Positions 17,455 through 34,292 of a stretch of 64,000 nt of DNA are shown here, one piece after another. The stretch is from Escherichia coli. Its GTDB lineage: Bacteria > Pseudomonadota > Gammaproteobacteria > Enterobacterales > Enterobacteriaceae. Every line of letters starts with the position of its first letter. Positions within the stretch are counted from its first letter, which is position 1. The position numbers and the translations under genes are program-made. The notes below the pieces were generated by a model, which saw only the letters and a program-made list of their open reading frames with translations, did not search any database and was not told the DNA's origin. The stretch is taken from assembly GCF_030384885.1 (NCBI RefSeq), contig NZ_CP128613.1, one strand, 5' to 3'.

Positions 17455-17934
17455 TTACAGAGATATTTTCCTGCGCTTGTGGCTTGATGGTTCAAACTCT
17501 GACGAGATACGAGATAGTTGCTCAAGACTCTGTTCAATTGAACGCTGGAACTCCATAGCGGCTTCTGTACGCTGTTTTATGACCAAGGCAACTATTTCTT
17601 CATCAGTCTTTTCTGAAATAGCCTTACGGTATAACACGCGTTCGTTAAATAAATCGAGATTACCAGTTGATCTCGCTGATGTGTTAGCTTTTGAACTGCT
17701 GATAGGATTTAACTCGTCAATAAAGTATTCAATAAGAGATCCTCTCTTTTTTTCAAGTCTGCGAAGTTCGGTATGTGCAGACTTAAATTTTTGAGCCTTA
17801 ACCAATGGAATGTCATCGGAACGCAGTTTGCGATATTCATTTCTGTATTCTTCTATAGAAATATGATTTTTTAGTTCTTTGACTGTATTTACGTATTCGA
17901 TTAAATCACTGTTGTCTGTTTTTACTTTTCTCAT
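17455..17934 (-). CDS. Hypothetical charged, probably coiled-coil protein (159 aa).
   Basis: ORF only. The octamer repeat array lies 64 bp upstream of its start. Confidence 0.4.
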   Translation of the reverse strand: MRKVKTDNSDLIEYVNTVKELKNHISIEEYRNEYRKLRSDDIPLVKAQKFKSAHTELRRLEKKRGSLIEYFIDELNPISSSKANTSARSTGNLDLFNERVLYRKAISEKTDEEIVALVIKQRTEAAMEFQRSIEQSLEQLSRISSEFEPSSHKRRKISL

Positions 17935-17997
17935 AAGAATACCTCGTTAATAAATGATGGATATATTTATATTACGAGATATGGTGTTAGTGTCAAA

Positions 17998-18045
17998 TTA
18001 GCTCTTTAGCTCTTTAGCTCTTTAGCTCTTTAGCTCTTTAGCTCT
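17998..18045. repeat. Perfect tandem array, 6 x 8 bp (TTAGCTCT).
   Basis: Read directly: TTAGCTCT repeated six times without mismatch, between the RepL-like gene stop (18127) and the 159-aa gene start (17934). Confidence 0.95.
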
Positions 18046-18126
18046 GTTTCTCTCTTGGTAAGAAAATCCCTTTAGTGTAATAGGAGGTTATTACGGAGAT
18101 ATTTTTGCCTGTTTTTCCGCTGGTAA

Positions 18127-18684
18127 TTAATTTTTGTTATTCACTGTTTTCTTTTTGTCCTTCAAGTAATAAGTTTTCATGAAAGTTAAACGATCACCAT
18201 TAAACATATAGTCTGGATTAATAAAATAATAGTTCTGTATCATGGTCTCAGCAATAAATTTCTTGTCAGCAAGTTCTTTCATCCCTTTGAAATATGTCGT
18301 TCTTGATATTTTTACAATCTCTTGATCAACAATATCGAATGACATTAATATCGTATCTGTATCTTTATTGTCTCTAATAGCAAGATACAGTATCTTAAAT
18401 ACTTTCTTACCTGATGAGGATAAACCCTCAATAGCTGATACGCCATCCACATAAAGCTTCACGAACTGTGTCTTGTCTACTTCCATTGACTGAAAGAAAC
18501 CACCATGCCCAACCTGTTCTCCTGTATTTTCATTTACTACGGCTAAGCGGTCTTTTCCTGTTGTGATACGTCTGATACCTGTTTTTGTATGTATATTTGT
18601 ATCATTAAGGAATGGGTTTTTTACATGGCGAGGTAGACCTCTTCTTGATTTCTTTACTTCCGTTTGTATCTTATTTTCTATCAT
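18127..18684 (-). CDS. RepL-like / winged-helix DNA-binding protein (possible replication or maintenance protein).
   Basis: The pattern FVKLYVDGVSAIEGLSSSGKKVFKILYLAIR ... ISRTTYFKGMKELADKKFI ... YFINPDYMFNGD resembles the RepL-family layout I remember (F.K.Y...L..LS....KV...L, a wHTH, then INP....G). This is remembered similarity only. Confidence 0.4.
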   Translation of the reverse strand: MIENKIQTEVKKSRRGLPRHVKNPFLNDTNIHTKTGIRRITTGKDRLAVVNENTGEQVGHGGFFQSMEVDKTQFVKLYVDGVSAIEGLSSSGKKVFKILYLAIRDNKDTDTILMSFDIVDQEIVKISRTTYFKGMKELADKKFIAETMIQNYYFINPDYMFNGDRLTFMKTYYLKDKKKTVNNKN

Positions 18685-19095
18685 GGTACTTACTCCTTTA
18701 TTTTTTTAGTTATACATTTAAGTAAATACTATATTTTGCGTGCAAGTCAATACTTAAAGTTTATATTTTTTAAAATAACTAACACTTGATGTTTTTACGT
18801 ATAAAACTTGTAGTGCTACAGAATATATACAAATAACACTTTATTATTTTTATTTGAGAATAGTTATCAACTTAAGTACCGGGATTCGGGACTTTAACTC
18901 CCGAGAGTGCGTACTTTGTTTTAAGCTATAGCTGGCTTGAGAGCAGTTTTCTTCTTCATTATTCAAATAGCGAAGCTTTGGATGACATTTTAAAGAATAT
19001 AATATTGGAAATAGTTCTTCTTTTTAGTTGATTGGTGCCTTATCAAAATGGCACCAGTGGTGTTATCTGTGTTATTTTTCCTACTATGTTATTAC

Positions 19096-19143
19096 AGCGA
19101 AGTGATTGTTGTATACAATCACGAACCGCTGCTACTATCGGGA
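19096..19143. repeat. Copy A of a ~46-48-bp repeat carrying an inverted repeat (GTGATTGT...ACAATCAC).
   Basis: AGCGAAGTGATTGTTGTATACAATCACGAACCGCTGCTACTATCGGGA. It matches copy B at most positions. Confidence 0.7.
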
Positions 19144-19233
19144 CTGCTTGATTAATTTTACTTTAACTTTATATGCGTCTACGACGCGATCTTTTTTGGA
19201 TAAATCCAATATTAACAGGGGCAAGCCCTGTTC

Positions 19234-19279
19234 AGCAGAGTGATTGTTCGCAACAATCACGAAGTGCTGCTATCAAGGA
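19234..19279. repeat. Copy B of the same repeat (GTGATTGTT-CGC-AACAATCAC hairpin or palindrome).
   Basis: AGCAGAGTGATTGTTCGCAACAATCACGAAGTGCTGCTATCAAGGA. Confidence 0.7.
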
Positions 19280-19602
19280 TATAGTTTTCCTATACGTTTA
19301 AGAGCAAATGCTATATGTCTAAAGGGAAAAACTATGTTTAAACATAGGATCTAAATTCAGCATCATGAGGAAAAGAGATCAAACAATGATCGAGTACTTT
19401 TCTTTTTATTTAAAAAACAGGAGATGAATAAAATAAAAATATCAGCGTCAGGGCGTAGCCGTGCGTAAGCACAGAGATAAAGATCTTTTCAATAAGAAGT
19501 TTAATAATCAGTAGTGAAATCATAAATAAAATAAAAATATATTTGATTTTTACGCCTGCGATAGAGTATTAAACAGTAATAAAATAATAAAAGGAAAATA
19601 TA

Positions 19603-19872
19603 ATGAACAATACCAAAATGATCACTCTCTTCCATCCACATGACAAAACACCATTTATAATCTGTATTGTAAACAAAGTAGAAGATACAGACCACGGATT
19701 GAAATTAACCCTTGAAAACGGCAACAATATTTGTGTCAATAATTATAGTCATTATCTGTTATCAGAGTCTGTAAGTCGTTGCGATAAACACAGGTTAAAA
19801 AATATTTATATTCGCTTGGTTTCAGAACTCACGCAGATGAGTGAAAAAACTATAAATTCGCAAATGTTATAA
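19603..19872 (+). CDS. Hypothetical protein (89 aa).
   Basis: ORF with AAAGGAAAA upstream. No family recognised. Confidence 0.35.
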   Translation: MNNTKMITLFHPHDKTPFIICIVNKVEDTDHGLKLTLENGNNICVNNYSHYLLSESVSRCDKHRLKNIYIRLVSELTQMSEKTINSQML

Positions 19873-19950
19873 AATATCTATAAAGACATAATAAATATTT
19901 TTGATATTATGATTAGTTGCATGGTATTAAATAAAAACAGGAAAAATATC

Positions 19951-20355
19951 ATGCTAAAAATAAAAACAAAGATCTATATACCTACAACTTTAACAGGAAA
20001 CATGGATAAACACTATATCCCTGTTTTAGAGGATTTAAGAAAAGCGATATACAGCGACAGAATGTTATCAAGGCTTGCAGATAGCGGCAATATTGTTATC
20101 CATAGTTCAGTTGGGTATCCGGTTGCTAAATACAAAAATACGGGTATTAGCATAGGTATAGAACCATTGAATCCAATGATAAGACAAAATCTGACTCTTG
20201 GATATATTATGGTTGTCAGAAACGGAAAAGCATCACAGGAGATTAATGGTTTACTTAACAGGTCATTGCCAAAAGCAATAAGCACTTTTAAGGATCACAT
20301 CAATGAATATGAAGCAGTAAAAAGTAAAATGCGACAACAAACTATGATCTGGTAA
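19951..20355 (+). CDS. Hypothetical protein (134 aa).
   Basis: ORF. ATG 19951 is preceded by ACAGGAAAAA. Confidence 0.35.
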   Translation: MLKIKTKIYIPTTLTGNMDKHYIPVLEDLRKAIYSDRMLSRLADSGNIVIHSSVGYPVAKYKNTGISIGIEPLNPMIRQNLTLGYIMVVRNGKASQEINGLLNRSLPKAISTFKDHINEYEAVKSKMRQQTMIW

Positions 20356-20385
20356 AATATTTAGTCTGATAACTACAGGAGAAGG

Positions 20386-21432
20386 ATGAGCAATGGAAGG
20401 TAAGTTAATTTTTGTTCCGATGCAATACTACGGTTTCAATCCAATTACGATGAAACCGCTGCCGTTCCATTGCTATCCATCCAGAACGTCATAGCCAATA
20501 CCGATCCGTTCTTTCTTCTCCGGTTCTTCCACCATACCGTTCTGATTGAAGAAGGAACAACGCTGGCAAGTATCTTTCTGGCAATAGAACCATGGAAGGC
20601 TTTGTTAGCAGCTTATCTGGACAGAGATGTTGGTGCTTATATAGATGAGGTAAGAAAACCGTCCGGGCCAACGGCATGGGATATTGAATGGATCGGAATT
20701 GACCGTCGAAGTTCGGTTTATCGCGCTTACAAGCGTCAGGATATGGAAGAAGGGGAGGATTTTTCGACCTATTTTAATCGCGAGCGCTTCCCGACTGATG
20801 AGCTTGACATAGAAAGTAGCTGTGATGCTTCCGGCTTTATCAAAGGAGATAAAGAACGCTGGAGTATCAGCGGCGATATTCAACAAATTAAAAATCTTCC
20901 TGTAATCCTCTATAGCAAACAGACATTAATGACTTCACCGAAAGACGGTTTGCTGAAGAAAAACGTATCGGGTGTGAAGAGTTCCAAGCACAGTTGCTTT
21001 GTTTATGGCGATACCTCGTTTTCTTTTAGAGAGGTTATGGAAGCCATCTTCATTAGTAGGCTGTTCTTCTATGCACCAAAAGACGCAGCCAGCAGCCTTG
21101 ATGAGCTGAAAGCGAGTCTGGCTGAACTGGAAGAAGAACGTGCTGAAAGCACAAATACGGAGTCGATCGGCAATGAAACAGGTGAAGAACCTACCATCGT
21201 CGTAGCCGACGGTGCTTTTGATTCGCTCGCTGCTCACATGGAGTCTGAAAAGCGGAGTGGCAATCCATTAAGAAGTTGTGCCAGCAGGAAGGAGGGCTGC
21301 CCATACGTATTGGCAACATCAAAATGGCTGAGCCTCCAGCGTTATAGCTATTTTAAGAAAAGAAATGATGTAAATATGCATCTGGTTTTTCTTTATAATG
21401 TAAGGATGTCCGATGAAACATCAGCATCGTGA
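20386..21432 (+). pseudogene. Hypothetical gene interrupted by an in-frame TAA at codon 6 (or re-initiating at TTG 20470).
   Basis: ATG 20386 has a strong RBS (AGGAGAAGG) and is in the same frame as the 320-aa ORF starting at 20470. Only one stop (20401-20403) separates them. This gene is noticeably less AT-rich than its neighbours. Confidence 0.4.
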
Positions 21433-21640
21433 ATGTTATCTGGTTAATAATTTTCTTATGTAATATTATCTATGCCATCTGGCTATGTTTTCAATTGTTT
21501 TAGTTCTCGACAACTGTTTTTATATCCAGTATGATTTTACTCGTATCCGGCAGAATATTTTTAGATGCTGTTTCATGAACTCCGGTTGAAAGGTTTATTC
21601 TCTACTTTTGGGAATAATAGTTAAAATGGAGATAAGTGTA

Positions 21641-23077
21641 ATGACGTTTAGTAATGAAATTGAAGTTTTCATAAAAGATTTTGTTAAAGATCTTGAAAAT
21701 GATTGTGCTGCTATTTTTTCTGGCGCAGGAATGTCTAAAAGTCAAGGTTATGTTGATTGGAAAGAATTACTTAGCGATATAGCAGAAGAACTTAGTTTAG
21801 ACATTAATAAAGAAGACGATCTAATATCGCTTGCTCAATTTCATGTTAATGAAAAGAAAGGGGCTACAAAACTCACAAGGAAGATAATCGAAGAGTTTTC
21901 TGAGCAAGCCGAGCCATCAGAGGTTCATAATATAATTGCTCGTTTACCGATTAAGACATTTTGGACAACAAACTATGACACTTTAATTGAAGATAGTCTG
22001 CGGAAAGTTTACAAAATTGCAGATGTAAAAAGAAACATAGATGATTTAAATACAACACGACCTAAGCGAGACGCGATAGTATATAAAATGCATGGTGATA
22101 TTTCGTCCCCATCCAAGGCTATTTTATATAAAGAGCAGTATGAAAAATACTACAGAACACACGCTTCATTTATCACCGCACTTAGCGGAGATTTAATATC
22201 AAAAACCTTTCTATTCATAGGGTTTAGTTTTACCGACCCAAATCTGGATTACATTTTGAGTCGTTTGTATACTCATTCTGGGGACAAGAGGACACACTAT
22301 TGCTTTATGAAGAATGAGGCTAATAATTCCCTAGATGATGAAGAAACAGTAAATTATAAGATCAGAAAACAAAAACTGCGAATCGATGATCTCAAGAGAT
22401 TTGGTATACAAGTATTATTAATAGATGAATATTCTGACATCCCTAAAATTCTAGCTAAGATAGAGCAATCATTTAAAAAGAAAACGATATTTATTTCTGG
22501 TAGTGCAGAAAAATATGGGGATCTTGAAAGACCTAAAGCATTAGATTTTATTCACACATTAGCATATGAGATTATAAAGAATAATTATAGGATAGTGAAT
22601 GGATTTGGATGGGGCGTCGGAAGTTCTGTGATAAATGGTGCGTTGGATGCAATTTATAGTAGGCCAGATAAATTATCAGAAGAACAGCTCATTGTTAGAC
22701 CATTTCCACAAACTGTCAGTAAGGGGAAAGATATTCAAGAACTTTGGGAGGAGTATAGACAGAGAATGATTCCTCTTGGTGGTATTGCATTGTTTATTTT
22801 TGGAAATAAACAAGAGGAAAATAATGATATAGTTAATGCTAGGGGAGTATTTAGAGAGTTTGAGATTGCTGTTCAACATGGCCTTGTACCAATTCCTTTA
22901 CCCAATACCGGGTATATGTCTAAATATATATTTGAACAAATATCACAAGATCCTAAGAAATATTATGGAAGTAATGAATGGATATATAATGATTTGTCTG
23001 AGCTTACTGAAAAAGATTTTTCGGTAAAAAAAACAATAGAAGTTGTAATAAAAATCATAAACAAACTGAATAAATAA
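21641..23077 (+). CDS. thsA: Thoeris ThsA: N-terminal SIR2-like NADase domain plus C-terminal SLOG-like ligand-binding domain.
   Basis: SIR2-type motifs are IFSGAGMSKSQGYVDWKELL, FWTTNYDTLIE, IVYKMHGDIS and LFIGFSFTDPNLDYI. The C-terminal half has IFISGSAEKYG...NGFGWGVGSSVINGAL (SLOG/LOG-like). At about 478 aa it is close to my memory of the Bacillus ThsA size (roughly 475 aa). Confidence 0.85.
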   Translation: MTFSNEIEVFIKDFVKDLENDCAAIFSGAGMSKSQGYVDWKELLSDIAEELSLDINKEDDLISLAQFHVNEKKGATKLTRKIIEEFSEQAEPSEVHNIIARLPIKTFWTTNYDTLIEDSLRKVYKIADVKRNIDDLNTTRPKRDAIVYKMHGDISSPSKAILYKEQYEKYYRTHASFITALSGDLISKTFLFIGFSFTDPNLDYILSRLYTHSGDKRTHYCFMKNEANNSLDDEETVNYKIRKQKLRIDDLKRFGIQVLLIDEYSDIPKILAKIEQSFKKKTIFISGSAEKYGDLERPKALDFIHTLAYEIIKNNYRIVNGFGWGVGSSVINGALDAIYSRPDKLSEEQLIVRPFPQTVSKGKDIQELWEEYRQRMIPLGGIALFIFGNKQEENNDIVNARGVFREFEIAVQHGLVPIPLPNTGYMSKYIFEQISQDPKKYYGSNEWIYNDLSELTEKDFSVKKTIEVVIKIINKLNK

Positions 23078-23093
23078 TATATTAGGTGAAGTT

Positions 23094-23705
23094 ATGGCTC
23101 ATGAAACATTCATATCATATAAATATAGTGAAGCACAGGATTTAAGAGACAAAATTGTCAAGGCATTAGGAGATGACGCTGTTTACTATAAAGGGGAGAC
23201 ATCGGAGTCTCCTGATATAAGTAATACAACAGTAGATAATATAAAGAACAATCTTAAAAATATGATTTTCGGGACATCTGTTTTAATTGTTATTATTTCC
23301 CCGAATATGATTAAAAGTAAATGGATTGACTGGGAAATTGAATATGCATTGAAAGAATACAAGAGAGGAGGAACCACTTCCCGAACTAATGGCATTGTTG
23401 GTGTGATAATGAAGGTTAATAATAGCTATGACTGGTTAGTATCTTCTTCAATCAAGCCTGATGGATGTTCATCAAGAACTATTGATACAACTAAACTATA
23501 TGACATTATTAATAATAATAGGTTTAATTTAACTTCAGAAGATAAATATTGTTGCCCTGAGTGCAAATCATATGATCAATTGACTGGTTCTTATATTTCA
23601 TTGATAGAAGAAGACCGATTTTTAGCAGATGTATCTTCATACATTGAAAATGCCTATGAGAAATCTAAAAAATTAAGTTCCTACGATTTATATAAACAAA
23701 AATAG
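23094..23705 (+). CDS. thsB: Thoeris ThsB: TIR-domain protein.
   Basis: FISYKYSEAQDLRDKI... and ...SVLIVIISPNMIKSKWIDWEIEYAL give a TIR-like fold with the conserved Glu in WEIE. It lies 17 bp downstream of thsA on the same strand. Confidence 0.8.
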   Translation: MAHETFISYKYSEAQDLRDKIVKALGDDAVYYKGETSESPDISNTTVDNIKNNLKNMIFGTSVLIVIISPNMIKSKWIDWEIEYALKEYKRGGTTSRTNGIVGVIMKVNNSYDWLVSSSIKPDGCSSRTIDTTKLYDIINNNRFNLTSEDKYCCPECKSYDQLTGSYISLIEEDRFLADVSSYIENAYEKSKKLSSYDLYKQK

Positions 23706-23720
23706 ATGATAACGGAAAAG

Positions 23721-23740
23721 GGCCACAATTATTTGTGGCC
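23721..23740. terminator. Hairpin between the convergent thsB and lipoprotein genes (probable bidirectional terminator).
   Basis: GGCCACAA-TTAT-TTGTGGCC, a perfect 8-bp stem flanked by A/T-rich sequence. Confidence 0.5.
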
Positions 23741-23754
23741 TATATATACACATA

Positions 23755-24132
23755 TTAATCAAGCAGGCCACGAGATGTCTTACTTGCAGTCTGACGAAAA
23801 TCATAACGTTCCGCAATATCACCTTTAAACCAGATATCCAGTGATTTAATGTGCGCCGTGTTGCTATTGGTCAACAGAGCAAGGCCCGGTATGTAGTTAG
23901 ATAGTTGGCTTTCTCCCGTCATACTTGAGTAGTTCCACATCTCCTGACCATCAGTCGTAGCGCGTGTTTGAGGCTCTCCAAAGGCAGCAAGAATTTCTTG
24001 TTGGGTAGTTTTTCCCTTGACGATTTTTAATTTAACCGTTTGATGATTTTCATCAGTTAGGGATTTATTACCATGAACGGTACAGCCACTAAGTGGTAAT
24101 ATGATAAAAATAGCAAGTAATAATTTTTTCAT
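23755..24132 (-). CDS. Small lipoprotein (BamE/SmpA-like fold suspected).
   Basis: Signal peptide plus lipobox MKKLLLAIFIILPLSGC. The pattern KGKTTQQEILAAFGEPQ...W.Y is reminiscent of SmpA/OmlA-type lipoproteins. Confidence 0.65.
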   Translation of the reverse strand: MKKLLLAIFIILPLSGCTVHGNKSLTDENHQTVKLKIVKGKTTQQEILAAFGEPQTRATTDGQEMWNYSSMTGESQLSNYIPGLALLTNSNTAHIKSLDIWFKGDIAERYDFRQTASKTSRGLLD

Positions 24133-24163
24133 TTTGTTCCATAATTAGATGAAAGGTGAGACG

Positions 24164-24652
24164 TTAGAAAACATACTTTTTAAATACCAGCATCCATCGC
24201 TCACAAAGTTCGTGATTTGAAGTGCTTTTATTTTTCAAGGGAACATTAACTTTCCACATGGGATTTTTAATATCATCGGTTAAAATATTTAGACCAGACC
24301 GTTTGTTTGCTGAAAGTTGTTCTCTCCAGTTAGCAATGGCCGCATTATTCATACCTCGTAATGTTCCATTGCCGTAAAACTTACCACCTTCTGAAAGCGT
24401 ATAATTTATTTCTCGAATTTGATCAAAAGTATATGTGCTATCTTTATCTTTATTGAAAATACGGACAGTATGTTTTTGAGTATCAATGACAATACCTGTC
24501 TGTTGGCATTGATACGAAAGAATGTCGCCGTCCAGAACTTCCGTGAAGCTGTTGTAGTGCTTTTTCTTCTGTATATCTGCTGCGGTCATGATAATGACGA
24601 AGAGCACCACTAAAAATACGATACCTGTTGCTTCCACTTTTACTTCCTCCAT
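24164..24652 (-). CDS. Single-pass membrane protein, function unknown.
   Basis: N-terminal TM segment GIVFLVVLFVIIMTAA. It is 31 bp upstream of the lipoprotein gene on the same strand, so the two are a likely operon. Confidence 0.5.
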   Translation of the reverse strand: MEEVKVEATGIVFLVVLFVIIMTAADIQKKKHYNSFTEVLDGDILSYQCQQTGIVIDTQKHTVRIFNKDKDSTYTFDQIREINYTLSEGGKFYGNGTLRGMNNAAIANWREQLSANKRSGLNILTDDIKNPMWKVNVPLKNKSTSNHELCERWMLVFKKYVF

Positions 24653-24771
24653 GTAAATGAGTTAAAGAGACTGAACCCGCTCACAGAGCTTTGCTTCGTT
24701 TTATACGTCCTACAGCACCAAACTCATGGCGTCGGTCTCGGCGTTGCAAGGCTATCAGAACTTGAAATCAT

Positions 24772-24910
24772 GATCGATATAAAAGATCGATAATTGCTTA
24801 TTGATAGATTCTAACGATTAAACAGATGATATCGATCGGCAATTAATTGTTATTATCGATCGAATATCAACTTATGATAGCTGCAAGCTATCATGTGGTC
24901 GTTTTTGATC
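24772..24910. promoter_or_regulatory. Divergent-promoter region with five GATC sites, four ATCGAT motifs and a 21-bp perfect palindrome.
   Basis: GATC occurs at 24772, 24785, 24834, 24858 and 24907. The palindrome ATGATAGCT-GCA-AGCTATCAT is at 24874-24894. TGATAG/CTATCA half-sites also occur at 24752 and 24802. Confidence 0.4.
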
Positions 24911-25069
24911 GTTTTAAACGATATGACGAGACGCTAAAAGAATTGAATCCTATCAATTGGTTAAGCGGTGGTTTTGCCATGTGATATCAGCCGGATCCCG
25001 CAACAACTCAAGCCCTGACCGGATTAGGTCAAAAATTTAGGCACTTTGATTATCAGGATGGACAAGCAG

Positions 25070-25600
25070 ATGAAGAAGATTTTACTCGTTGTAGGCGCAA
25101 CTCTGGCACTGGCGGGATGTGGTGAGAAAGGTGATTTTGAGAAGGCGATCAATGCCAAGATAGGGCAGGACAAATATTGCTTCTCGCTGGATAACAATAA
25201 CACCAGCTTCCCCATCCGTCTTGCCAAGCCACGACTTGATTCGACTGGCACAGGGACGAATTCAGTGATCCTCGACGGTTTTATTGAGCAGGGCCTGATG
25301 GTTTTTGAACAGGGCTATGATTCGAACGTATTAGGGATAACAGAGGAAGGCAAAAAAGCCAAAGTCTGGAGCACAAGAGACGGTGCTTGTGTAGGTCGTC
25401 GTGCTGTTGATGAGATTAAGGAATGGACGGAGCCGGGAAACGGTAATCAGAAAGTAGTTCGCGTGACTTATACGTGGAAGTTGGTTGACGTTCCGGGCTG
25501 GATTGACAAAAAAGCCTTCGCCAGCGTTAAAGGAATGAATGAACCTGCTGATGGTGCAATGAATCTTGTTAAAACAAGTAATGGCTGGAAAGCTAACTAA
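25070..25600 (+). CDS. Lipoprotein, function unknown (176 aa).
   Basis: MKKILLVVGATLALAGC gives a signal peptide plus lipobox. Confidence 0.65.
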   Translation: MKKILLVVGATLALAGCGEKGDFEKAINAKIGQDKYCFSLDNNNTSFPIRLAKPRLDSTGTGTNSVILDGFIEQGLMVFEQGYDSNVLGITEEGKKAKVWSTRDGACVGRRAVDEIKEWTEPGNGNQKVVRVTYTWKLVDVPGWIDKKAFASVKGMNEPADGAMNLVKTSNGWKAN

Positions 25601-25695
25601 AAGGATGCTGGATCGTTAAATGCCCCTGCTACGCTGTGGAAAGTGACAGAAGGGGCATGAATTGTATTTCATTTAATGTAGTGAATGATATTTTA

Positions 25696-26268
25696 TTATA
25701 TCGATTTGTTAGATACTTTCATCAATTTCTCTTGAATTTTTCTTATTCTTTCAAGTTCTTCAACAATGGGATTTTTCTCGCCTTCACTTTGCATGAAAGG
25801 GCTTAAGTCTATATTGTTTTTTTCAACAACTTCTTTATTCATATAACTGTACGTTGCGGTTATTGTAAATTGTTGTGGTAACGGATTTTTCGATTCTCCA
25901 AAAATAACCCAACCTTGACCAAGGGCGAAGAATAACTCTTGATTGGGCGCTAAGCTATCAATAGTCGATGTAAAAATACTTGTTTCTTTTAGGTTTTTAG
26001 TTGGCTCATCGAACTGATAAAAATCCTTATCTAATTCTAATTTTACATTCAGGGCTGGTGTCTTACCGCTATTATAAATTTTCAGGTATAGGAATTGCGA
26101 GTGAGGTCTTACCATTGGCTGGATTATTATATAAGGACGAGACATTGCCTCGGTTTGCTCATTCATTATCTGAGCTGTTCGTTCGCTTATTCTCGACATC
26201 TTGTATGTCAAAAATGCATAAATTCCTGTAATGATAACAAGAATTGCTGTAAGTATTTCCATTGTCAT
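25696..26268 (-). CDS. N-terminally membrane-anchored protein, function unknown (190 aa).
   Basis: TM segment ILTAILVIITGIYAFLTY. It is the last gene of a same-strand run: mobA, then the 164-aa gene, then this gene. Confidence 0.45.
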   Translation of the reverse strand: MTMEILTAILVIITGIYAFLTYKMSRISERTAQIMNEQTEAMSRPYIIIQPMVRPHSQFLYLKIYNSGKTPALNVKLELDKDFYQFDEPTKNLKETSIFTSTIDSLAPNQELFFALGQGWVIFGESKNPLPQQFTITATYSYMNKEVVEKNNIDLSPFMQSEGEKNPIVEELERIRKIQEKLMKVSNKSI

Positions 26269-26314
26269 GATTAACTCCTAAGTATAATGATTCATACCAG
26301 TAAGGTATAATATT

Positions 26315-26809
26315 TTAACTATTATTGCATTTTTTTCTGTTGAATAGTTGATTATATCCAAGTTCCATTTCTTCAATAAAATCTTCATTAAATGTTGGAA
26401 ATCCACACGCCAGTGGTTCTTTCCCTCGAATTTTGAATAAGTTATAAAGATAACTACTTTCTTTATATGCGACATGAATGGCAGGATATGGCCTATTTTT
26501 TATAATCTTATTGTTTAGTTCCTTATCATTGATAATGTTATATTGATCCCCCGTTATATCAACTACAATATTATCTATCTCAAGCCAGTAATGGGTTATT
26601 TGACTATTTTTTCCGGTAGTTGCGCTAACTCCTTTTAGCTCACATTCAGGCCATAGGGTCAGAAAATGGTAAGAAAGAAGCATTGAGGTAAGCTTACAAC
26701 TCATAACAGGAAAACAGTCTATAACAAGACTGGTGTTCTTTTTATCACAACTTTCAATTAATCTACGAAGCTTAACTGCTTCTTCTTTTATTTCGATAAT
26801 GGTTGGCAA
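26315..26809 (-). CDS. Putative transglutaminase-like / papain-fold cysteine peptidase-like protein (164 aa).
   Basis: The spacing of C (VMSCKLTSMLL), H (ITHYWLEI) and D (VVDITGDQ) matches the Cys-His-Asp arrangement of transglutaminase-like cores as I remember them. Inference only. Confidence 0.4.
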   Translation of the reverse strand: MPTIIEIKEEAVKLRRLIESCDKKNTSLVIDCFPVMSCKLTSMLLSYHFLTLWPECELKGVSATTGKNSQITHYWLEIDNIVVDITGDQYNIINDKELNNKIIKNRPYPAIHVAYKESSYLYNLFKIRGKEPLACGFPTFNEDFIEEMELGYNQLFNRKKCNNS

Positions 26810-26887
26810 GATCAGCTCCCTAACTACATGATGTGCCGAGCATTTAATATATACGATACATAGGTCATTAAAAAGTATGTTCTAAAT

Positions 26888-28369
26888 TTAGTGTTTCTTA
26901 TGGCTCGGTGGACTCAGTTTTGGCGCGCTTCCTTGCCTCATGTGTTCTGGTGGCATTGAAGGTGTGAGATTTATGCTTCTATTAACTTCCGGCTGTTCCT
27001 GATTAGGACGGCTTGGTAAACGTTTGATTTCATCAGGTGTTAATTTATAGTCACCATTGTTAAATTTGGTACGTTTTTCAAACTCCGAGCGTGGAACATT
27101 GACACCCAGCACTTCATCATAGACATAGTTCTCTGCGATACGCTTATCATGGTCAGCATCAATGGTATCGGGTTTCCTTCTGGCCCATACAAATCTCTCT
27201 TTGAAGAAGCCCACCACAAGCAGTGTGAAACGCTTAAACAAACCATTTTGTCGTGGCTTAGTCTGTTTCCTACTTCTCATCGGAGCACGGTTTATCGCTC
27301 TGGTGTTTCGAGAAGAAGGGGTTTCCAGTTTAGTGGATGCAGTTGGTTCAGGAACAATCAGAACGGGAGATTTCTTCCCTGAAATACTTACTTTACTGAC
27401 CTTATTGGGATCACGGTAAGATTTTGCTGCTGGTCTTCTGCTTGTGGCGTGTGTCTTCATAACAGGCTGCTGTTCTACTGTTGCCGGGTAGTCAGGGATA
27501 ACGATTTCTTCGGGTTCAGCAAGATGTGTAATCGTAAAGCTTCTGACATCAACCACGATCTCCAGTGGTAGCTCACTGAATGTGGTGTAGACCTTTTTGG
27601 CCTCTTCAATTTGCTGATCGCGTTGAGCTTGTTCAGTAGCTCGCTGTTCCTGAGACTCGGTGTCATTCCATTTAGCACGATGAACACGCTGCATTGCCGG
27701 GCGGTTAGTTTCTGTTGCTTTGGCAAGCCAGAATGCTTTCTCTTCAGCGCTGAATGCTTCTTCTGCCTGAGCAAGGGCATCAGCACATTGCGTCCTGAGA
27801 GAACGGTGATCGATACGTTCTTCACTGCCTGCGGCTTCAAGGTAGCTGTTTGACATCGTGGCCCACGACTCACGCCATTGGATCATTATCTTCTTATCAT
27901 TCCAGCTTCTTTCTTTTTTACCGAAGCCTTCGGGACCAATGGTTTTCAGGGTTAACATGACGTGAGCATGGGGATTCTTACCATCTAAATCGTGGAATGC
28001 GATATCAGCTATCATTCCTTTCTCAACAAAGTTCTTCTGGCAGTATTCGGCAACCAATTTTTTCTTGTCATCATTACTGAGTTCTACGGGAATAGCGACA
28101 TCAAAATAACGGGCTGTTTGACCATTGTTCTGGCGTTCCACTCTTTCAACTTCATTCCATAGTGCTGAGGAGCTTTCAACAATATGAGCAGGTGCGGAAA
28201 CGGGCGCTAATATAATATGACCATGAAGATCTCTTCTGCGTCTGAAATCAAATGTTTCGCCAATGCGATTATCTATAATACGTGTACGGGCATGGTAGGC
28301 AGCTTTCGCAACGGAAGTCATGCCTTCGCTTCGTTTCACAATTTTAAAATCCAGATGAAAAATCGCCAT
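26888..28369 (-). CDS. mobA: MobA/MobL-family (MOBQ-type) relaxase.
   Basis: MAIFHLDFKIVKRSEGMTSVAKAAYHAR carries the catalytic Tyr region, cf. RSF1010 MobA MAIYHLTAK. ARYFDVAIPVELS and FHDLDGKNPHAHVMLT give the 3-His motif. Confidence 0.85.
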   Translation of the reverse strand: MAIFHLDFKIVKRSEGMTSVAKAAYHARTRIIDNRIGETFDFRRRRDLHGHIILAPVSAPAHIVESSSALWNEVERVERQNNGQTARYFDVAIPVELSNDDKKKLVAEYCQKNFVEKGMIADIAFHDLDGKNPHAHVMLTLKTIGPEGFGKKERSWNDKKIMIQWRESWATMSNSYLEAAGSEERIDHRSLRTQCADALAQAEEAFSAEEKAFWLAKATETNRPAMQRVHRAKWNDTESQEQRATEQAQRDQQIEEAKKVYTTFSELPLEIVVDVRSFTITHLAEPEEIVIPDYPATVEQQPVMKTHATSRRPAAKSYRDPNKVSKVSISGKKSPVLIVPEPTASTKLETPSSRNTRAINRAPMRSRKQTKPRQNGLFKRFTLLVVGFFKERFVWARRKPDTIDADHDKRIAENYVYDEVLGVNVPRSEFEKRTKFNNGDYKLTPDEIKRLPSRPNQEQPEVNRSINLTPSMPPEHMRQGSAPKLSPPSHKKH

Positions 28370-29012
28370 TAAAAATATAACCTCAAATAAAAATGCTGCT
28401 GTTAGTTTTTCGTAAGAAAAACTTTGGGGTTGACGTTGACCTTGGTTTTGCTTTTAGCCTGCGGCAGCAACCGTCGGTAGACCCCACACACTGCGTAGCA
28501 GTGTATAGGTGGGCATTGTCTTTAAGAAAATAAGCCAATGTAAAATGCCCCTCTTAATAATCAATACGAAATATATGTATGGTTGTAAAATAATACGCCG
28601 GGTTAAGCGGCGCAAACTGGATTAAAGGTGTAGGTTTCACGTCTGCAGGACAAAAAGAGTAAAGAAAAGGCCCGTAAGGGCAAAAGAAGTATTAATTATT
28701 CCCGCCGTAAGGCGGGATAGCGTTAATTGAAGAAAAAAGCTAATAAAACACGGAGTGTTATGTGTTGCACAATTCACAGGTTGAGGTGGAGAAATAGAGT
28801 TAAAGTTGACAGGTGAAAATAAAAGCACGAATGCGCAAAAATAAGTAACGCGTAGAGTGCGGGGTATTTTAAGTTAGTAATTACTATCACATGTGTTGCA
28901 CTATTTTATTTATGGACGTTCCAGAACTATTTTCTTTGACAAAACGGTGTAAATTTGACGTTATTCATCTTTGTGATAATTAAATACGTATAAACAACAA
29001 GAGGTGATAACT
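28370..29012. other. Intergenic region between divergent mobA and a small accessory gene; probable oriT-containing region.
   Basis: The position is analogous to RSF1010-type oriT, between divergent mob genes. The inverted repeat ACACTGC-GTA-GCAGTGT (28488-28504) is followed by ATAGGTGGGCATTG. There are a tandem GTTGACGTTGAC (28428-28439), an 11-bp direct repeat ATGTGTTGCAC (28759 and 28890), and hairpins at 28701-28716. Confidence 0.35.
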
Positions 29013-29317
29013 ATGGATGATAATATAAAAAAACCAAGAACAGAAAAAACATTAAAGCAAAAGGTTGCTTTTGCTCAGCTTGAACTTAATCGTCTTAAGT
29101 CTCTGGAAAAATCAGAACGAAAAAAGTTGAAACAAGGCTAAAGATTATACTTGGTGCGGAAGTGGCTAAGGCTATGCAGTGTGATATCGAACAGGTGGAT
29201 AAAGAACTCGTTATGGGGATTTTGCTTTCAGCATCTGACCTGAATGATATTGAAAAAATAACGTATATAAAAGCAGGCAGAAAGTTTCTTGCTCAAATGG
29301 ATGGAAGACAAAAATAA
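29013..29317 (+). CDS. Small basic coiled-coil protein (putative relaxosome accessory protein) split over the 0 and -1 frames at an A_AAA_AAG heptamer.
   Basis: ORF1 runs 29013-29141 (42 codons) and ends ...SERKKLKQG*. The -1 frame continues from 29126 as VETRLKIILGAEVAKAM... to the stop at 29315-29317. The heptamer A AAA AAG is at 29120-29126. Confidence 0.45.
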
Positions 29318-29574
29318 AAATCTTTAAATTTATTATGATTCAGGTATTGATATCTAATTATTATCTGTTATCTATATAAAAGAACAGAACGCAGGATCAT
29401 CCTTTATTAATATTTTTTCCTTTTCAATCATGCGTTCTGTTCGACCAGTAATCTGTTAATTTTTATCTTTATGTAGTGAACGTTATTATTACTTTTTCAT
29501 CAGATGTGAGAAATATCCCATGAGGAAGTAATAATGACAGTAGTGATAACAAATGTTGTTTTTAAATCTCCCGG

Positions 29575-29602
29575 AAGGCAAAGAGAAATCTTTGCCTTTT
29601 TT
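29575..29602 (+). terminator. Rho-independent terminator.
   Basis: AAGGCAAAGA-GAAA-TCTTTGCCTT is a perfect 10-bp stem with a GNRA loop, followed by TTTT. Confidence 0.6.
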
Positions 29603-29712
29603 AATTCATCCGTCTGTCAGATAGAGTTAAATATATCTTGCTATTTCTATTGCCAGATATGAGAGAAGCGTTATAACAGGAGTTATCATTAAAACAAAAA
29701 AAGGAGATAATA

Positions 29713-30270
29713 ATGGTTTTATTAAAGAACAAAAGAAAAAGCAAGAAAGGTTTCTCACTACTCGAACTATTACTTGTTTTGGGCATCATTGCTGCATTAG
29801 TGGTAGCGGCTTTTATCGTTTATCCCAAGGTTCAGGCTTCACAAAGAGCGCAGGCAGAATCCAATAACATTGCCACCATACAGGCAGGTGTTAAAGCATT
29901 ATACACGTCGGCTTCAAGTTTTACTGGCCTGACAAATACTGTGGCTGTTCAGGCAAAAATCTTCCCTGACAATATGTTAAGTGGAACAGGCAATGCAGCT
30001 AAACCCATCAATGCCTTTAAAGGTAATGTGACGCTGGCTGCGGCAGCAACTGGCCCGTCATCAGCGGCTGGCTCTTCTTTCACTATTACATACGATAATG
30101 TGCCAGCAGCGGAATGTGTGAAAATAACCACTGCGGCGGCAGGCAACTTTTATACCGCTAAAGTCGGTTCAAAAGTTGTGAAGGCTTCGGATGGAACACT
30201 TGATGTGGCGGCTACGGCAGCAGCCTGTAATAACGCCACAAGTAATACATTAGTTTTCACGTCTATTTAA
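29713..30270 (+). CDS. pilS: Type IVb prepilin, PilS-like (R64 thin-pilus / SPI-7-type major pilin).
   Basis: Long basic leader, then KKG|FSLLELLLVLGIIAALVVAAF (Gly-1, Glu+5). The C-terminal Cys pair is ECVK...AACN. Confidence 0.8.
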   Translation: MVLLKNKRKSKKGFSLLELLLVLGIIAALVVAAFIVYPKVQASQRAQAESNNIATIQAGVKALYTSASSFTGLTNTVAVQAKIFPDNMLSGTGNAAKPINAFKGNVTLAAAATGPSSAAGSSFTITYDNVPAAECVKITTAAAGNFYTAKVGSKVVKASDGTLDVAATAAACNNATSNTLVFTSI

Positions 30271-30275
30271 TGAAG

Positions 30276-30299
30276 AGGGCGTAAGCCCTTTTCTTTCTT
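30276..30299 (+). terminator. Weak or attenuating terminator hairpin between pilS and pilV.
   Basis: AGGGC-GTAA-GCCCT followed by TTTCTTTCTT. Confidence 0.45.
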
Positions 30300-30322
30300 A
30301 TTGCTAAAACAGGGAGATAATT

Positions 30323-31759
30323 ATGATAAAGAAAAAAGGATTTACCTTACTGGAAGTCAGTATTGTTTTAGGTATTGGAACGCTTATCGTTTTTATGAAG
30401 TTTCAGGATATGAGAAACGATCAGGAAGCAGTATTGGCTGATAATGTCGGAACACAGATTAAACAGCTTGGTGAAGCAGTTAACCGCTATATCAGTATTC
30501 GCTATGACAAGATTTCCACACTGTCATCATCTAATAATCAAAGCAGCGATCCGGGGCCAAGAACCTGTTCGGCTGCTGGTTGCGAAATCACTTACCAGAC
30601 GTTAATTAATGAAGGTCTGTTGCCTGTAGGCTATACAGGAACTAACGCGCAAAAAGCATCCTACAAGATTGTGTTAAAACGTTCAGGAACAGCGCCGGAT
30701 TACGTCATTAATGGCCTTATAACAACCGCCAGCCCGTGGGAAGAAGGTGGTCGTATTCGTTATGACCTGTTAGGTAAAGCGGTTCAGGCGGCTGGTGTTG
30801 ATGGTGGGATGAGCAGAAACACCAAGATAGCTTCCGGCTATGGTGGTCAGTGGAGTGAGAACTCTAATAGCTACAGCAATATCACGGGTGGTGGATTGCT
30901 GGCTTACCGCGTGGGGTATAACTCTTCAATGTATTCTGTTTATCTGCGTCGTGATGGAACGTTGCCAATGACGGGTGATCTGAATCTTGGTGGGAAGAGC
31001 ATCAAAAACATCAAAGATATTACTGCATCAGGGACAACAACAACCGGGGCACTTAAGACAACGGGTAATGCGTCTGTTGCATCAGATCTGACTGTGGGTG
31101 GAACCTCGACCCTTAATGGTCCTGTAAATATCAACAACAACCTCAAGGTAAAATCCGATACCTATCTGAACACGCTATCAACAACAGGTCTGGCGAAGTT
31201 TGGTAGCCGTATTGCGACGAACGGACTTAATCCAAACGATTTGCCTGCTGGCTGGGCTGGCGGTGTTCGCACCTATGATTTGTATGCGTCGGGGACTGTT
31301 GGTGTTGGAACCGGTAAAACAGTTAAAGCTTACATGAACAATGCGGGTAATATTTATGCGTCAGGTAATCTTACCGCCGGGACGATAAAATCCAACGGAA
31401 CAATTGAATCAACAGGCAGAATCAAAGCAGGTGAATATCTCCACCTGAATGGTCAGGCAACGTTGAATGCGAAATGTACGCCTAATGGTCTGGTGGGGCG
31501 AGATAGTGTGGGGAAAATATTATCATGTGTCAGTGGAAAGTGGTCTGATCTTACACCCGCAGCAGCGTCAGGTATCTATGTTCGTTATTATAATAGCATC
31601 CAGTGGTCATGTCCTGTGCCTAACCGAGCAACCGGAGGCTGTTCATGTTCGACAGGTCTTAAAAGTATCATCATCAATACAGATTCAACTGAAACGTGTT
31701 CAGGAGTTAAAAACACGCACTGTAGAACATCGACAAAATACTTTTATGCTTGTGTTTAA
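30323..31759 (+). CDS. pilV: PilV-like type IVb minor pilin / tip adhesin (shufflon-type protein, but with a fixed C terminus here).
   Basis: MIKKKG|[18 protein letters not shown] is a prepilin N terminus. It is 478 aa with a Cys-rich C-terminal region and lies immediately after pilS, as in R64-type pil operons. Confidence 0.7.
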
Positions 31760-31921
31760 ATTGGATTTTCAATAAATGATATATTATTTAATAAATGTCT
31801 TTTAAAGATATTCACTTCAATGAAGTATCTGATTGCCCATATATGGGGAGTGGTTTACAGCCCAATGGGTTGATTCTGTCACCCCAACTTTGCAAATGTT
31901 GAAGGAGTATTCTATCGAGAA

Positions 31922-31937
31922 AGGGCCGTGAGGCCCT
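31922..31937. terminator. Hairpin between the convergent pilV and TIR-like genes.
   Basis: AGGGCC-GTGA-GGCCCT followed by TTGTTTC. Confidence 0.5.
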
Positions 31938-31966
31938 TTGTTTCTGAGAATTATCTTGGATTTTGT

Positions 31967-32797
31967 CTAAATTATATTATTCATATCTATTGAATATCCT
32001 GCCTCTTTTAATTCTCTTGCTAAACGCATTTTCCACCCTTCATTAGAGTCTATTTTTTCATACGTAATACCAAGAGCATCAGTTGGAATTTCGATATCTC
32101 CCTTTATGAGAACCATTGTTTTTTCTCTACCTAACAATGCGGTAAAATATCCAAGTTCGAGAATGACATTCTGACGGGCTCGAAGGCTTTTATTTTGCTC
32201 ATTGTTAATCGGGTATCCATAATCATCGGGAGTCATCAAGATTACTGCAAAACCCGCTCTTTTTGCAAACTCCTGAAACTTTTCAATTATGGTCATTCCT
32301 TTGTTTATTTGCTCTTGTAAAATGACGGGTTCAACGCCCAGTTTTTCTAGAAATCTCGCAACTGAATGTTTTGTGCCTTCATCATGACCATGAACTAAAA
32401 AAACTGAATTACTTTCAGGTAATTCGGTTTTTAATTCTGATTCATCAAATTTTTCGGCAGTGAATACACCTTCAGTTCCAATGCTAGATCTCCATTTACC
32501 TCTTAATTTATTATTATTGACTAAGCTACAAATTACCGTAACTTTCCCTAACATAACCATCGGGTTTTTATTTCCGGGAGTTAGTTCAATAAACAGGTTT
32601 TCGCTTATTTTTCCTGAAATACTGTATTCATATGCTCCAAGTGCAAGTTCATGTATCTTCGCTGAACCGCTTACATTATTACCGTCTACATTTAGAGTAA
32701 AACTAATCCCACCTTGGTTGGTTCCGGAGATATCACCAGTCCAATAGCCTGAATATACATCATTTAGCATATAACTCCCCTCGCGATAATATTCCAT
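31967..32797 (-). CDS. TIR-like nucleotide-binding/NADase-type protein of the CAP12/PycTIR kind, with an unrecognised ~130-aa N-terminal domain.
   Basis: The C-terminal half (VFLVHGHDEGTKHSVARFLEKLGVEPVILQEQINKGMTIIEKFQEFAKRAGFAVILMTPDD...RARQNVILELGYFTALLGREKTMVLIKGDIEIPTDALGITY) matches the remembered consensus of the TIR-like effector domain seen in CBASS Cap12 and Pycsar PycTIR. Confidence 0.65.
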   Translation of the reverse strand: MEYYREGSYMLNDVYSGYWTGDISGTNQGGISFTLNVDGNNVSGSAKIHELALGAYEYSISGKISENLFIELTPGNKNPMVMLGKVTVICSLVNNNKLRGKWRSSIGTEGVFTAEKFDESELKTELPESNSVFLVHGHDEGTKHSVARFLEKLGVEPVILQEQINKGMTIIEKFQEFAKRAGFAVILMTPDDYGYPINNEQNKSLRARQNVILELGYFTALLGREKTMVLIKGDIEIPTDALGITYEKIDSNEGWKMRLARELKEAGYSIDMNNII

Positions 32798-32896
32798 GTG
32801 AATGTTTTATTATTGCAACATACGTCGGATCGTAGCGTAATTATCAATTTAGTATACATTCGAAAAAACGTTTAGCCTTCAACCTCCATTATTTCA

Positions 32897-34114
32897 CTAT
32901 TTACAGTAATCAGTCCACTCATCCATCAGTGCCACCCGCTTAGGCCATAACGTCCCACGTTGATACGCAGCCTCTGCCTTATCTGCCAACTGGTGAGCTA
33001 ACGCATGTTCAATTACTTCACGCGGGTAGTTGGTCGTTTCACCAGCCCAATCACGGAATGTCGATCTAAAACCATGCTGCGTTAAATCTGTGTATCCCAT
33101 TCGTTTTAGGACTGCCAGTAAAGCCGTATCCGAGAGTTGTCCCTTCCGAGTGGCAGGGAATACAAAATTGATACCCTTAAAGCGTGGTAAAGCCTTTAAC
33201 AGGACAACAGCAGCATCAGACAGAGGAACTCGATGCTCCTTCGCTGCTTTCATTCGGCTTGCAGGTATGGTCCACGTTTTACCTTCAAGATCGATCTCTG
33301 ACCACTCGGCACCACGAATTTCTCCTGAGCGTGCCGCGGTCAGTATGGCAAACTCAAGCGCACGAGGCGAAACGCCGCTTCGTTCACGTAGTTCTTTCAT
33401 AAAGGAGCCGATCTGGTTATAGGGAAGAGCGGCATGGTGCTTGGTGATCTGAACTTTACTTGGCTGAGGCAACAGAGGTTTCAACATACCTTTCCATGCG
33501 GCAGGATTATCACCTTCAAAGTATTCTTTGGCCTTAGCGTAATCAATCACCGTTTCAATACGTCCACGTAGACGACTGGCGGTTTCATTCTTGGTTAACC
33601 AGATAGGTTCCAGTATTGCCAGAAGATCCACTTTGGTGATTTCACTAACGGCCTTTTTGCCAATGAAAGGGTAGGCATAGGTCTCCAGTGTGGAACGCCA
33701 TTGAGCGAGATGTTTTTTGTTCTTCATCTCACTGTCTTTGACTTCCAGCACTTCTTCACAACACTCGGCAAAGGTCTTTTTCTTCCGGGCCAGTATTTCC
33801 TGCCGGGATTTTTGCTCGTGTTTTTCTTGAAGGGGATTAATACCATTACGGATTTGTTTACGTAGCTCACGCGCTTTGTCACGCGCTTCGGCTAAGGAGA
33901 CTTCCGGGTAAGGGCCAAGCCCCATATTCAAACGTCTTGGAACTGTTCTACCGAGATTGTTGATTCGGGTTCCCATAGCTACACAAAGAACCCATGCACG
34001 GGACTGATTCCGGATGCGAAGGTATAAACCATCCACACCACCTACGGCATACATACCTTCGGATTTTAATCGTGATACGACGAGTCCTGAGAGTTCCTTG
34101 GCCTTCTTTGGCAT
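32897..34114 (-). CDS. int: P4-type tyrosine integrase (DUF4102 arm-binding N terminus plus catalytic domain).
   Basis: GLYLRIRNQSRAWVL...LGPYPEVSLAEARDKARELRKQIRNGINP in the N-terminal part. The catalytic residues are in ...LTAARSGEIRGAEW..., HGFRSTFRDW and ALAHQ...AAYQRG. Confidence 0.9.
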   Translation of the reverse strand: MPKKAKELSGLVVSRLKSEGMYAVGGVDGLYLRIRNQSRAWVLCVAMGTRINNLGRTVPRRLNMGLGPYPEVSLAEARDKARELRKQIRNGINPLQEKHEQKSRQEILARKKKTFAECCEEVLEVKDSEMKNKKHLAQWRSTLETYAYPFIGKKAVSEITKVDLLAILEPIWLTKNETASRLRGRIETVIDYAKAKEYFEGDNPAAWKGMLKPLLPQPSKVQITKHHAALPYNQIGSFMKELRERSGVSPRALEFAILTAARSGEIRGAEWSEIDLEGKTWTIPASRMKAAKEHRVPLSDAAVVLLKALPRFKGINFVFPATRKGQLSDTALLAVLKRMGYTDLTQHGFRSTFRDWAGETTNYPREVIEHALAHQLADKAEAAYQRGTLWPKRVALMDEWTDYCK

Positions 34115-34278
34115 AGCAAAATCCTGTCATACAACCCGCCATACATACGGTACTGCATAAAATAGCTGATTGTTTGCACAGTAGCAATACACTACCGAAC
34201 AAAAAAATAATGACAATATTTTGTTTTTAAAGGAAAAATAGCACTTGGGTGGGCATTATCGAACACTAAAAATTTAGA

Positions 34279-34292
34279 CCCTCTCTCCGCCA
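34279..34292 (+). repeat. attR-type direct repeat of the serU 3' end.
   Basis: CCCTCTCTCCGCCA is identical to 11870-11883. It lies 165 bp upstream of the integrase start. Confidence 0.65.

Follow-up and report, generated by a model that had tools for sequence, protein, structure and literature searches.

Two probably independent cargo genes after mobQ in a ROD21-like island of Escherichia coli, encoding a predicted papain/transglutaminase-like protein and a single-pass membrane protein

Here we describe two neighbouring genes, orfA and orfB, located downstream of the relaxase gene mobQ on a ROD21-like genomic island in the chromosome of Escherichia coli (contig NZ_CP128613.1). The window, that is the whole stretch of DNA that was analysed, comprises 64,000 nucleotides. 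We consider it probable, with moderate confidence, that orfA and orfB are two independent accessory (cargo) genes which came to lie side by side in a variable slot after mobQ. The features at the centre of this analysis, including names from the Prokaryotic Genome Annotation Pipeline (PGAP), are the following.

26315..26809, minus strand: orfA, 164 amino acids (aa), TTG start; member of an unnamed family, predicted to be cytoplasmic and to have a papain/transglutaminase-like fold; Cys38, His73 and Asp84 are the catalytic candidates
25696..26268, minus strand: orfB, 190 aa, ATG start; single-pass membrane protein, PGAP name DUF8453 domain-containing protein
26888..28369, minus strand: mobQ, relaxase gene of the MobA/MobL family (Pfam MobA_MobL, E 2.6e-54), located upstream of orfA in the same orientation
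26816..26820, minus strand: GGGAG, a Shine-Dalgarno sequence visible in the DNA 6 nt ahead of the orfA start codon TTG
26275..26279, minus strand: AGGAG, a Shine-Dalgarno sequence visible in the DNA 6 nt ahead of the orfB start codon ATG
25620..25658, unstranded: GC-rich stem-loop where orfB and the SEN1982-type lipoprotein gene converge; may terminate transcription in both directions

Homologues of the relaxase gene are named 'MobQ family relaxase' by PGAP, and the three genes lie on one strand, with 78 bp between mobQ and orfA and 46 bp between orfA and orfB. A preliminary description of this DNA had given two open reading frames (ORFs) of 164 aa and 190 aa with this strand and these gaps, which the ORF list confirmed, and the motifs that it quoted, VMSCKLTS, THYWLEI and VVDITGDQ, are all present in the orfA translation. 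In comparisons with the copies from Yersinia (L009), Enterobacterales (L067) and Citrobacter (L007), orfA had a ratio of nonsynonymous to synonymous substitution rates (dN/dS) of 0.11-0.23 and orfB one of 0.07-0.26. Two of the comparisons included mobQ, with 0.15-0.21, and there both genes were level with mobQ or lower. The synonymous distances (dS) behind these ratios were 1.1-1.7. Both orfA and orfB are genuine genes under purifying selection, not chance ORFs.

A consensus scan of the gap between mobQ and orfA revealed no promoter-like or terminator-like site, and the gap contains no hairpin, its folding being no better than that of shuffled sequence (z +1.05). The stem-loop downstream of orfB folds with z-scores of -2.6 on the minus strand and -2.7 on the plus strand. 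Since the mobQ-orfA gap is devoid of structure and promoter and a stem-loop is located after orfB, it is plausible that mobQ, orfA and orfB form a single transcript, generated by read-through and closed at this stem-loop.

The distribution of the two genes carries most of the argument for their independence. The alignment of closer orfA relatives (A1) was used to scan GTDB with one genome per species, which yielded 49 loci encoding an orfA relative. The orfB hidden Markov model found a match in two of the 49, from Citrobacter (L007) and Yersinia (L009), both of them islands of the ROD21-like (EARL) type; in the other 47 species, further EARL islands (L008, L010, L014, L057 and L061) included, orfB is not located beside orfA. 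In five loci mobQ lies upstream of orfA. Directly after a tyrosine integrase gene orfA was found in eight species, the genes further downstream differing, and likewise in E. coli NCTC11121. On chromosome II of Aliivibrio fischeri ES114 (L028 5841-6602) orfA is the sole ORF between two consecutive repeats, about 135 nt long, of a repeat array, and in Vibrio sp. Y2-5 (L031 4794-7254) an orfA homologue also lies within a repeat array, in which the repeat-bounded unit holds three ORFs. The direct repeats of these Aliivibrio and Vibrio arrays are about 75-135 nt long and spaced about 0.5-5 kb apart, which suggests that the arrays are chromosomal and integron-cassette-like; the repeat unit of the Vibrio array presumably resembles the Vibrio cholerae repeat. 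Distant orfA homologues in streptococci and in cyanobacterium-like contigs were found in syntenic neighbourhoods of core genes. Two orfA-family genes in tandem, of 164 and 154 aa, are present in Pseudomonas sp. LS-2 (L035 5489-6444).

Conversely, orfB is found on its own in about ten unrelated contexts, and orfA is absent from every orfB context sampled outside the EARL family. Solitary orfB genes were seen in Rhodocyclaceae contigs, after glmS, and in two Vibrio contexts, where the neighbour is a different protein of 221 aa. Others adjoin a gene for a DzbB-like protein and YoeB/YefM in Halomonas (L075), lie close to TIR_2 and AAA_13 genes in Serratia, share an island with Lamassu and AbiE genes, or are located in two housekeeping neighbourhoods; three of these contexts come from metagenomes or metagenome-assembled genomes (MAGs). 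The neighbour in the vibrios is the same 221-aa protein in both Vibrio cyclitrophicus contigs (L071 and L073, 5571-6236), matches no Pfam family and starts 7 bp after orfB in two different contexts (13 bp by the contigs' own gene calls); it may be an alternative partner of orfB in vibrios. The Halomonas gene directly upstream of orfB (L075 3621-4910) encodes 429 aa with a match to Dazbog DzbB (PADLOC E 1.1e-11) and an R-x4-H (HEPN-like) motif, and the YoeB/YefM pair follows.

A similar picture emerged within the species. Both genes are present in 70 of 5426 complete E. coli genomes; a further 53 have orfA alone, in a diverged form, and none has orfB alone. Because the 70 pair-carrying genomes share one block that is 95-100% identical, they count as a single inheritance. 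The adjacency of orfA and orfB is thus confined to one island family and is not conserved across unrelated contexts.

The preliminary description had proposed a dedicated two-gene module and had named in advance co-occurrence elsewhere as a check on it. This proposal did not hold up, as the genes largely do not co-occur outside EARL islands. In its strongest form it would make orfA and orfB a pair for defence or abortive infection, the cysteine protease serving as sensor or activator and the membrane protein as effector. Several observations would fit such a pair: the adjacency on one strand with 46-bp spacing, the probable cytoplasmic exposure of both proteins, the presence of Thoeris, NACHT and TIR defence genes on the same island, and the fact that E. 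coli, Citrobacter, Yersinia and other Enterobacterales have kept the pair in their EARL islands even where MobQ has dropped to about 60% identity. Against this, orfB is missing beside orfA in nearly all species and is solitary elsewhere, orfA alone makes up a cassette-like unit in A. fischeri, and neither protein matches PADLOC. The lack of E. coli genomes with orfB alone likewise loses its weight, given that the 70 genomes represent one inheritance. We therefore regard a dedicated pair as unlikely.

The second line of evidence for cargo comes from the position after mobQ. The far flank of this position is formed by a conserved gene.

25046..25600, plus strand: SEN1982-family lipoprotein gene, identified by lipoprotein signal matches and PGAP names; far flank of the variable slot, conserved beside different contents in other E. 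coli

DNA related to the region from the lipoprotein gene to mobQ was detected in 716 of the 5426 E. coli genomes, and the 70 genomes with orfA-orfB are among them. The contents of the interval vary. Strain DS566 (L085 1227-2369) has a gene for a 380-aa hypothetical protein, strain 23AR1217 (L086 1327-2217) a DUF2971 gene that is a PADLOC candidate (PDC-S31), and Nissle 1917 (L087 1718-4255) tcpC together with TIR and macro-domain genes; around these differing contents the lipoprotein and mobQ flanks are 91-93% identical at the DNA level. In ROD21 the slot is occupied by SEN1981 and SEN1981A. Another E. coli variant has an orfA homologue in the slot region by TIR and macro genes, without orfB and not adjoining mobQ. 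From such unlike contents between flanks of 91-93% identity it follows that the position after mobQ behaves as a variable cargo slot, with the pattern of a hotspot.

This variability also bears on a possible role of orfA as an accessory factor of the relaxase or integrase, acting in processing, regulation or establishment after transfer. Such a role would explain why orfA should be expressed from the same operon, and it draws on the lack of a promoter or hairpin in the mobQ-orfA gap and on the recurrent neighbourhood: orfA follows mobQ on the same strand in five species and in E. coli (directly in four of the five), and comes directly after a tyrosine integrase gene in eight species with differing further genes. 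However, hotspot cargo would equally adjoin int or mob genes. Sister islands with a mobQ of about 91-93% DNA identity hold tcpC, the DUF2971 gene or the 380-aa hypothetical gene instead, and ROD21, with SEN1981/SEN1981A in its slot, is reported to transfer nonetheless (PMC3976249). Moreover, orfA relatives in cassette arrays and in core chromosomes lack any int or mob gene within 6 kb. An accessory function for transfer or integration is thus improbable.

What the orfA protein might be could be narrowed down from its relatives and its predicted fold. A word-indexed search gave 188 database relatives; the best 120 of the 188 are all at least 60% identical and called hypothetical, and none of them has a Pfam domain. 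Enterobacterales contribute most of the relatives listed, whereas Aeromonas, Pseudoalteromonas and Acinetobacter account for a few. An exhaustive search returned 98 cluster representatives down to about 20% identity, and 66 of these, with 19-48% identity to orfA, were used for a diverse alignment (A3). In the latter, P34, C38, H73, W75, D84 and Q89 show no variation, and R15, F33, T86 and D88 are almost invariant; Cys38 is invariant in both the closer and the diverse alignment. The Cys-His-Asp triad that had been predicted from the motifs corresponds to Cys38, His73 and Asp84, which are unchanged across all 66 homologues.

An AlphaFold2 model of moderate quality (pLDDT 66.9, pTM 0.66) places Cys38 at the N-terminus of a helix (residues 38-52) that is followed by strands 58-65, 71-78 and 81-84. 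Since Cys38 starts the helix and His73 and Asp84 are located in the second and third of the following strands, the arrangement in the model is that of papain/transglutaminase-like proteins, and the model also resembles solved members of the Peptidase_CA clan. Helical proteins without relation to them were scattered among these structural matches. At the sequence level the signals are fainter. The Pfam family YunG (PF24585) matches orfA with E 0.0014 and 19.2 bits over residues 66-111 only, which is below the gathering cut-off of 27, so that orfA appears to be related to YunG but is not a member of it. Weak profile matches were obtained for members of the 66-homologue set, with YunG for 29 of 66, with Transglut_core3 for two of 66 and with DUF2026 for one of 66, and one orfA homologue has a precomputed match to Tox-PLDMTX. 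The orfA family profile aligns with PeiW with Cys and His in register (E 0.055), and its H-W-E...D block aligns with 2HLY. A sequence-only search with either family profile, orfA or orfB, gave no significant match in the PDB; Foldseek of the orfA model against viral structures (BFVD) gave no match at E <= 0.001; NCBIfam contained no match for orfA or orfB, and the matches in PHROGs were to families of 'unknown function' only.

Taken together, the predicted structure and the alignments assign orfA to an unnamed family in the papain/transglutaminase-like superfamily with an intact Cys-His-Asp triad. By predicted fold and weak profile matches it would be nearest to DUF2026 (PDB 2HLY), YunG and Tox-PLDMTX. 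The structure 2HLY (DUF2026, PF09641) has been classed as papain-like, and in DUF2026 a Ser replaces the nucleophile Cys (PMC10318531). This paper was also the sole result of a literature search for DUF2026, and the search found nothing for the protein accessions, DUF8453 or PF24585.

No signal peptide and no hydrophobic N-terminus were detected in orfA, and the protein is therefore probably cytoplasmic. This is of importance for the idea that orfA is a host-directed virulence effector, a deamidase or transglutaminase like SseI or PMT, placed in the slot that elsewhere holds the TIR virulence factor TcpC. We consider this very improbable, because the protein has no export signal, the contexts examined contain no secretion-system genes, and homologues occur commonly in marine and free-living bacteria, as well as in integron-like arrays.

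For orfB, 136 database relatives were found, at least 48% identical among the matches listed. They come from Gammaproteobacteria, Betaproteobacteria and one MAG of Acidobacteria, and the conservation appears unusually high for such a taxonomic spread. The protein has one hydrophobic segment (Kyte-Doolittle maximum 2.06 in a 19-residue window starting at residue 2) and no second one, in agreement with the single N-terminal transmembrane (TM) helix predicted before. Its layout comprises a TM helix at about residues 4-22, an immunoglobulin-like (Ig-like) beta-sandwich at 47-154 and a C-terminal helix at 167-188. In 51 homologues the N-terminal flank measures about four residues with a net charge of -1, and a mean of 2.9 Lys and Arg residues lie in the 15 residues after the TM helix. 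By the positive-inside rule the beta-sandwich thus probably faces the cytoplasm (N-out/C-in). The polar TM residues T7, Y17 and T21 are invariant among the homologues, which hints at helix-helix contacts. Against Pfam, orfB gave a sub-threshold match only.

Scans of viral contigs recovered two orfB loci and seven orfA loci, several of the island type with mobQ or an integrase gene upstream of orfA, and a phage origin was not indicated.

Combining these data, our preferred reading of two independent cargo genes can be spelled out as follows. Transcription reading through from mobQ would probably provide the expression of orfA and orfB. The orfA protein alone, as judged from its model, would act as a cytoplasmic thiol-dependent amidohydrolase of the peptidase or deamidase type on a protein or peptide substrate, and orfB alone would be a membrane-tethered N-out/C-in module that binds or oligomerises. 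Each would most plausibly have a single-gene function in conflict among mobile elements, phages and hosts; this we propose tentatively and by association, from the phage-defence neighbours and from the locations in hotspots, cassettes and islets. The surroundings are rich in defence genes: this island has ThsA/ThsB as well as NACHT and PDC-S35 TIR proteins, and elsewhere Lamassu/AbiE, TIR_2/AAA_13 or a DzbB-like protein are encoded near orfB. Much firmer than the conflict role are the parts of the reading that concern structure and organisation.

Several points weigh against this reading. A part in such conflict is argued from association alone; neither protein has a match in PADLOC (no family of PADLOC-DB v2.0.0 at E <= 1), and some relatives of orfA and orfB are located among housekeeping genes. 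The cytoplasmic orientation of the orfB domain has the positive-inside rule as its sole basis. In addition, the mobQ-orfA-orfB trio was retained in EARL islands in which MobQ has diverged to 58-60% identity (L009 and L067), and the persistence of the trio leaves room for some functional coupling of orfA and orfB within the EARL family. It is conceivable, but rather doubtful, that orfA and/or orfB represent a new single-gene determinant of conflict with phages or mobile elements (defence, counter-defence or exclusion), travelling as hotspot cargo of EARL islands, integrase-bounded islets and integron cassettes, and that within EARL islands the two might cooperate, the cytoplasmic hydrolase acting on or with the membrane-tethered beta-sandwich protein.

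The possibility that either ORF, or both, is a remnant without function or arose by chance has next to no probability: the TTG start of orfA and the frameshift in the adjacent traD, which suggests some decay of the module, would be in line with it, but it is refuted, as far as sequence can tell, by dN/dS values of 0.07-0.26 at dS 1.1-1.7, strong Shine-Dalgarno sites before both ORFs and full-length homologues in several bacterial phyla.

The two cargo genes reside on an island with the following further features.

11884..34292, unstranded: ROD21-like (EARL-type) integrative mobilisable island of about 22.4 kb in tRNA-Ser(CGA), recognised by direct repeat, integrase, PilS, PilV, H-NS and RepL domains and by synteny with annotated E. 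coli islands
11870-11883 and 34279-34292, unstranded: 14-nt direct repeat CCCTCTCTCCGCCA, 3' end of tRNA-Ser(CGA), bounds of the island
32897-34114, minus strand: P4-type integrase, island integration gene
29014-29317 (deletion near 29123), opposite to mobQ: traD, small accessory gene divergent from mobQ, frameshifted
21608-23705, plus strand: complete type I Thoeris system with ThsA (SIR2 and STALD/SLOG; PADLOC E 8.9e-203) and ThsB (TIR; E 1.1e-85)
14832-16682, plus strand: NACHT-domain protein of 616 aa (Pfam NACHT E 3.8e-10; no PADLOC match)
31967-32797, minus strand: CAP12/Pycsar-type TIR protein of 276 aa adjoining the integrase gene; PADLOC candidate single-gene system PDC-S35 (E 6.5e-68)

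The genes of the island encode a P4-type integrase, the pilins PilS and PilV, a frameshifted TraD, MobQ, an H-NS homologue, a DUF4756 protein and a RepL-like protein, and two island lipoproteins are named by PGAP after SEN1982 and SEN1984 of Salmonella. Many E. coli chromosomes match the region at 94-97% identity, and E. coli records contain identical copies of the proteins. ROD21-like (EARL) islands with the same backbone have been described (PMC6035254, PMC3198454), and the gene content and order typical of them, a P4-type integrase, a MobA/MobL relaxase with TraD, PilS/PilV and an H-NS homologue, are found here. Compared with the intact copies in two other E. coli islands, traD has a deletion of 1 nt (GAAAGAAAG to GAAA-AAAG). 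As traD is frameshifted, the mobilisation module of this copy of the island may be impaired.

A link of the Thoeris system to orfA or orfB was considered and rejected, as it lies about 2-2.6 kb away on the opposite strand with three genes in between and is missing from most of the relatives that carry the pair. The 616-aa protein may be a NACHT-type bacterial defence gene product, and the 276-aa TIR protein occupies the position that TlpA has in Salmonella ROD21. Three matches to Rfam exceeded the gathering score, all of them outside the island: the small RNAs (sRNAs) DsrA (56504-56590) and rseX (48079-48168) and the EFASI RNA (10078-10207).

The present gain is mainly one of annotation. The orfA protein can be annotated as a protein of predicted papain/transglutaminase fold with a Cys-His-Asp triad from a so far unnamed family, and orfB as a membrane protein with one TM helix and an Ig-like domain; an annotation of the two as a system should be avoided. 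New is the orfA family, the fold of which is very well known, and orfB is already catalogued as a DUF. If either gene had a defence or counter-defence function, a compact single-gene system would be gained, and the slot after mobQ in ROD21-like islands, which is the tcpC slot in uropathogenic E. coli, would be a cargo hotspot worth mining. Both genes are reasonable low-cost candidates for a phage-challenge screen.

In comparison with known proteins, DUF2026 (PF09641; Atu2299, PDB 2HLY) and YunG (PF24585) are likewise small papain-like families, themselves uncharacterised. DUF2026 has a Ser at the position of the nucleophile, whereas the Cys is invariant in the orfA family, which differs from both families by its own motifs FP-x-x-x-C and DIT-x-DQ[FY]; no member of the orfA family has been shown to reach the curated thresholds of DUF2026 or YunG. 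LapG/BTLCP, PeiW, protein glutaminase and SseI/Tox-PLDMTX are periplasmic, secreted or part of larger proteins and have known substrates. In contrast, orfA is a stand-alone protein of 164 aa that is probably cytoplasmic, and its sequence similarity to them is not significant. For orfB, the label DUF8453 comes solely from the PGAP name of WP_000177655.1, which is 99% identical, and conveys no function in itself.

With regard to position, tcpC (c2398) of E. coli CFT073 and Nissle 1917 and SEN1981/SEN1981A of Salmonella Enteritidis ROD21 occupy the same place as orfA and orfB, on the mobQ strand in the interval between mobQ and the SEN1982-type lipoprotein gene. TcpC is a TIR NAD+ hydrolase with a described role in virulence, and neither this protein nor the SEN1981/SEN1981A proteins are related to orfA or orfB. 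The island as a whole departs from the described EARL family at its integration site. EARL islands are integrated at Asn-tRNA with a family direct repeat (PMC6035254), whereas the island analysed here is located at tRNA-Ser(CGA), serU, and the 3' end of Asn-tRNA has no second copy in the window. A sister island (L002) is located at ssrA and its integrase is 32% identical. From the tRNA-Ser repeat and this sister island it follows that the backbone is ROD21-like and the integration module is a different one.

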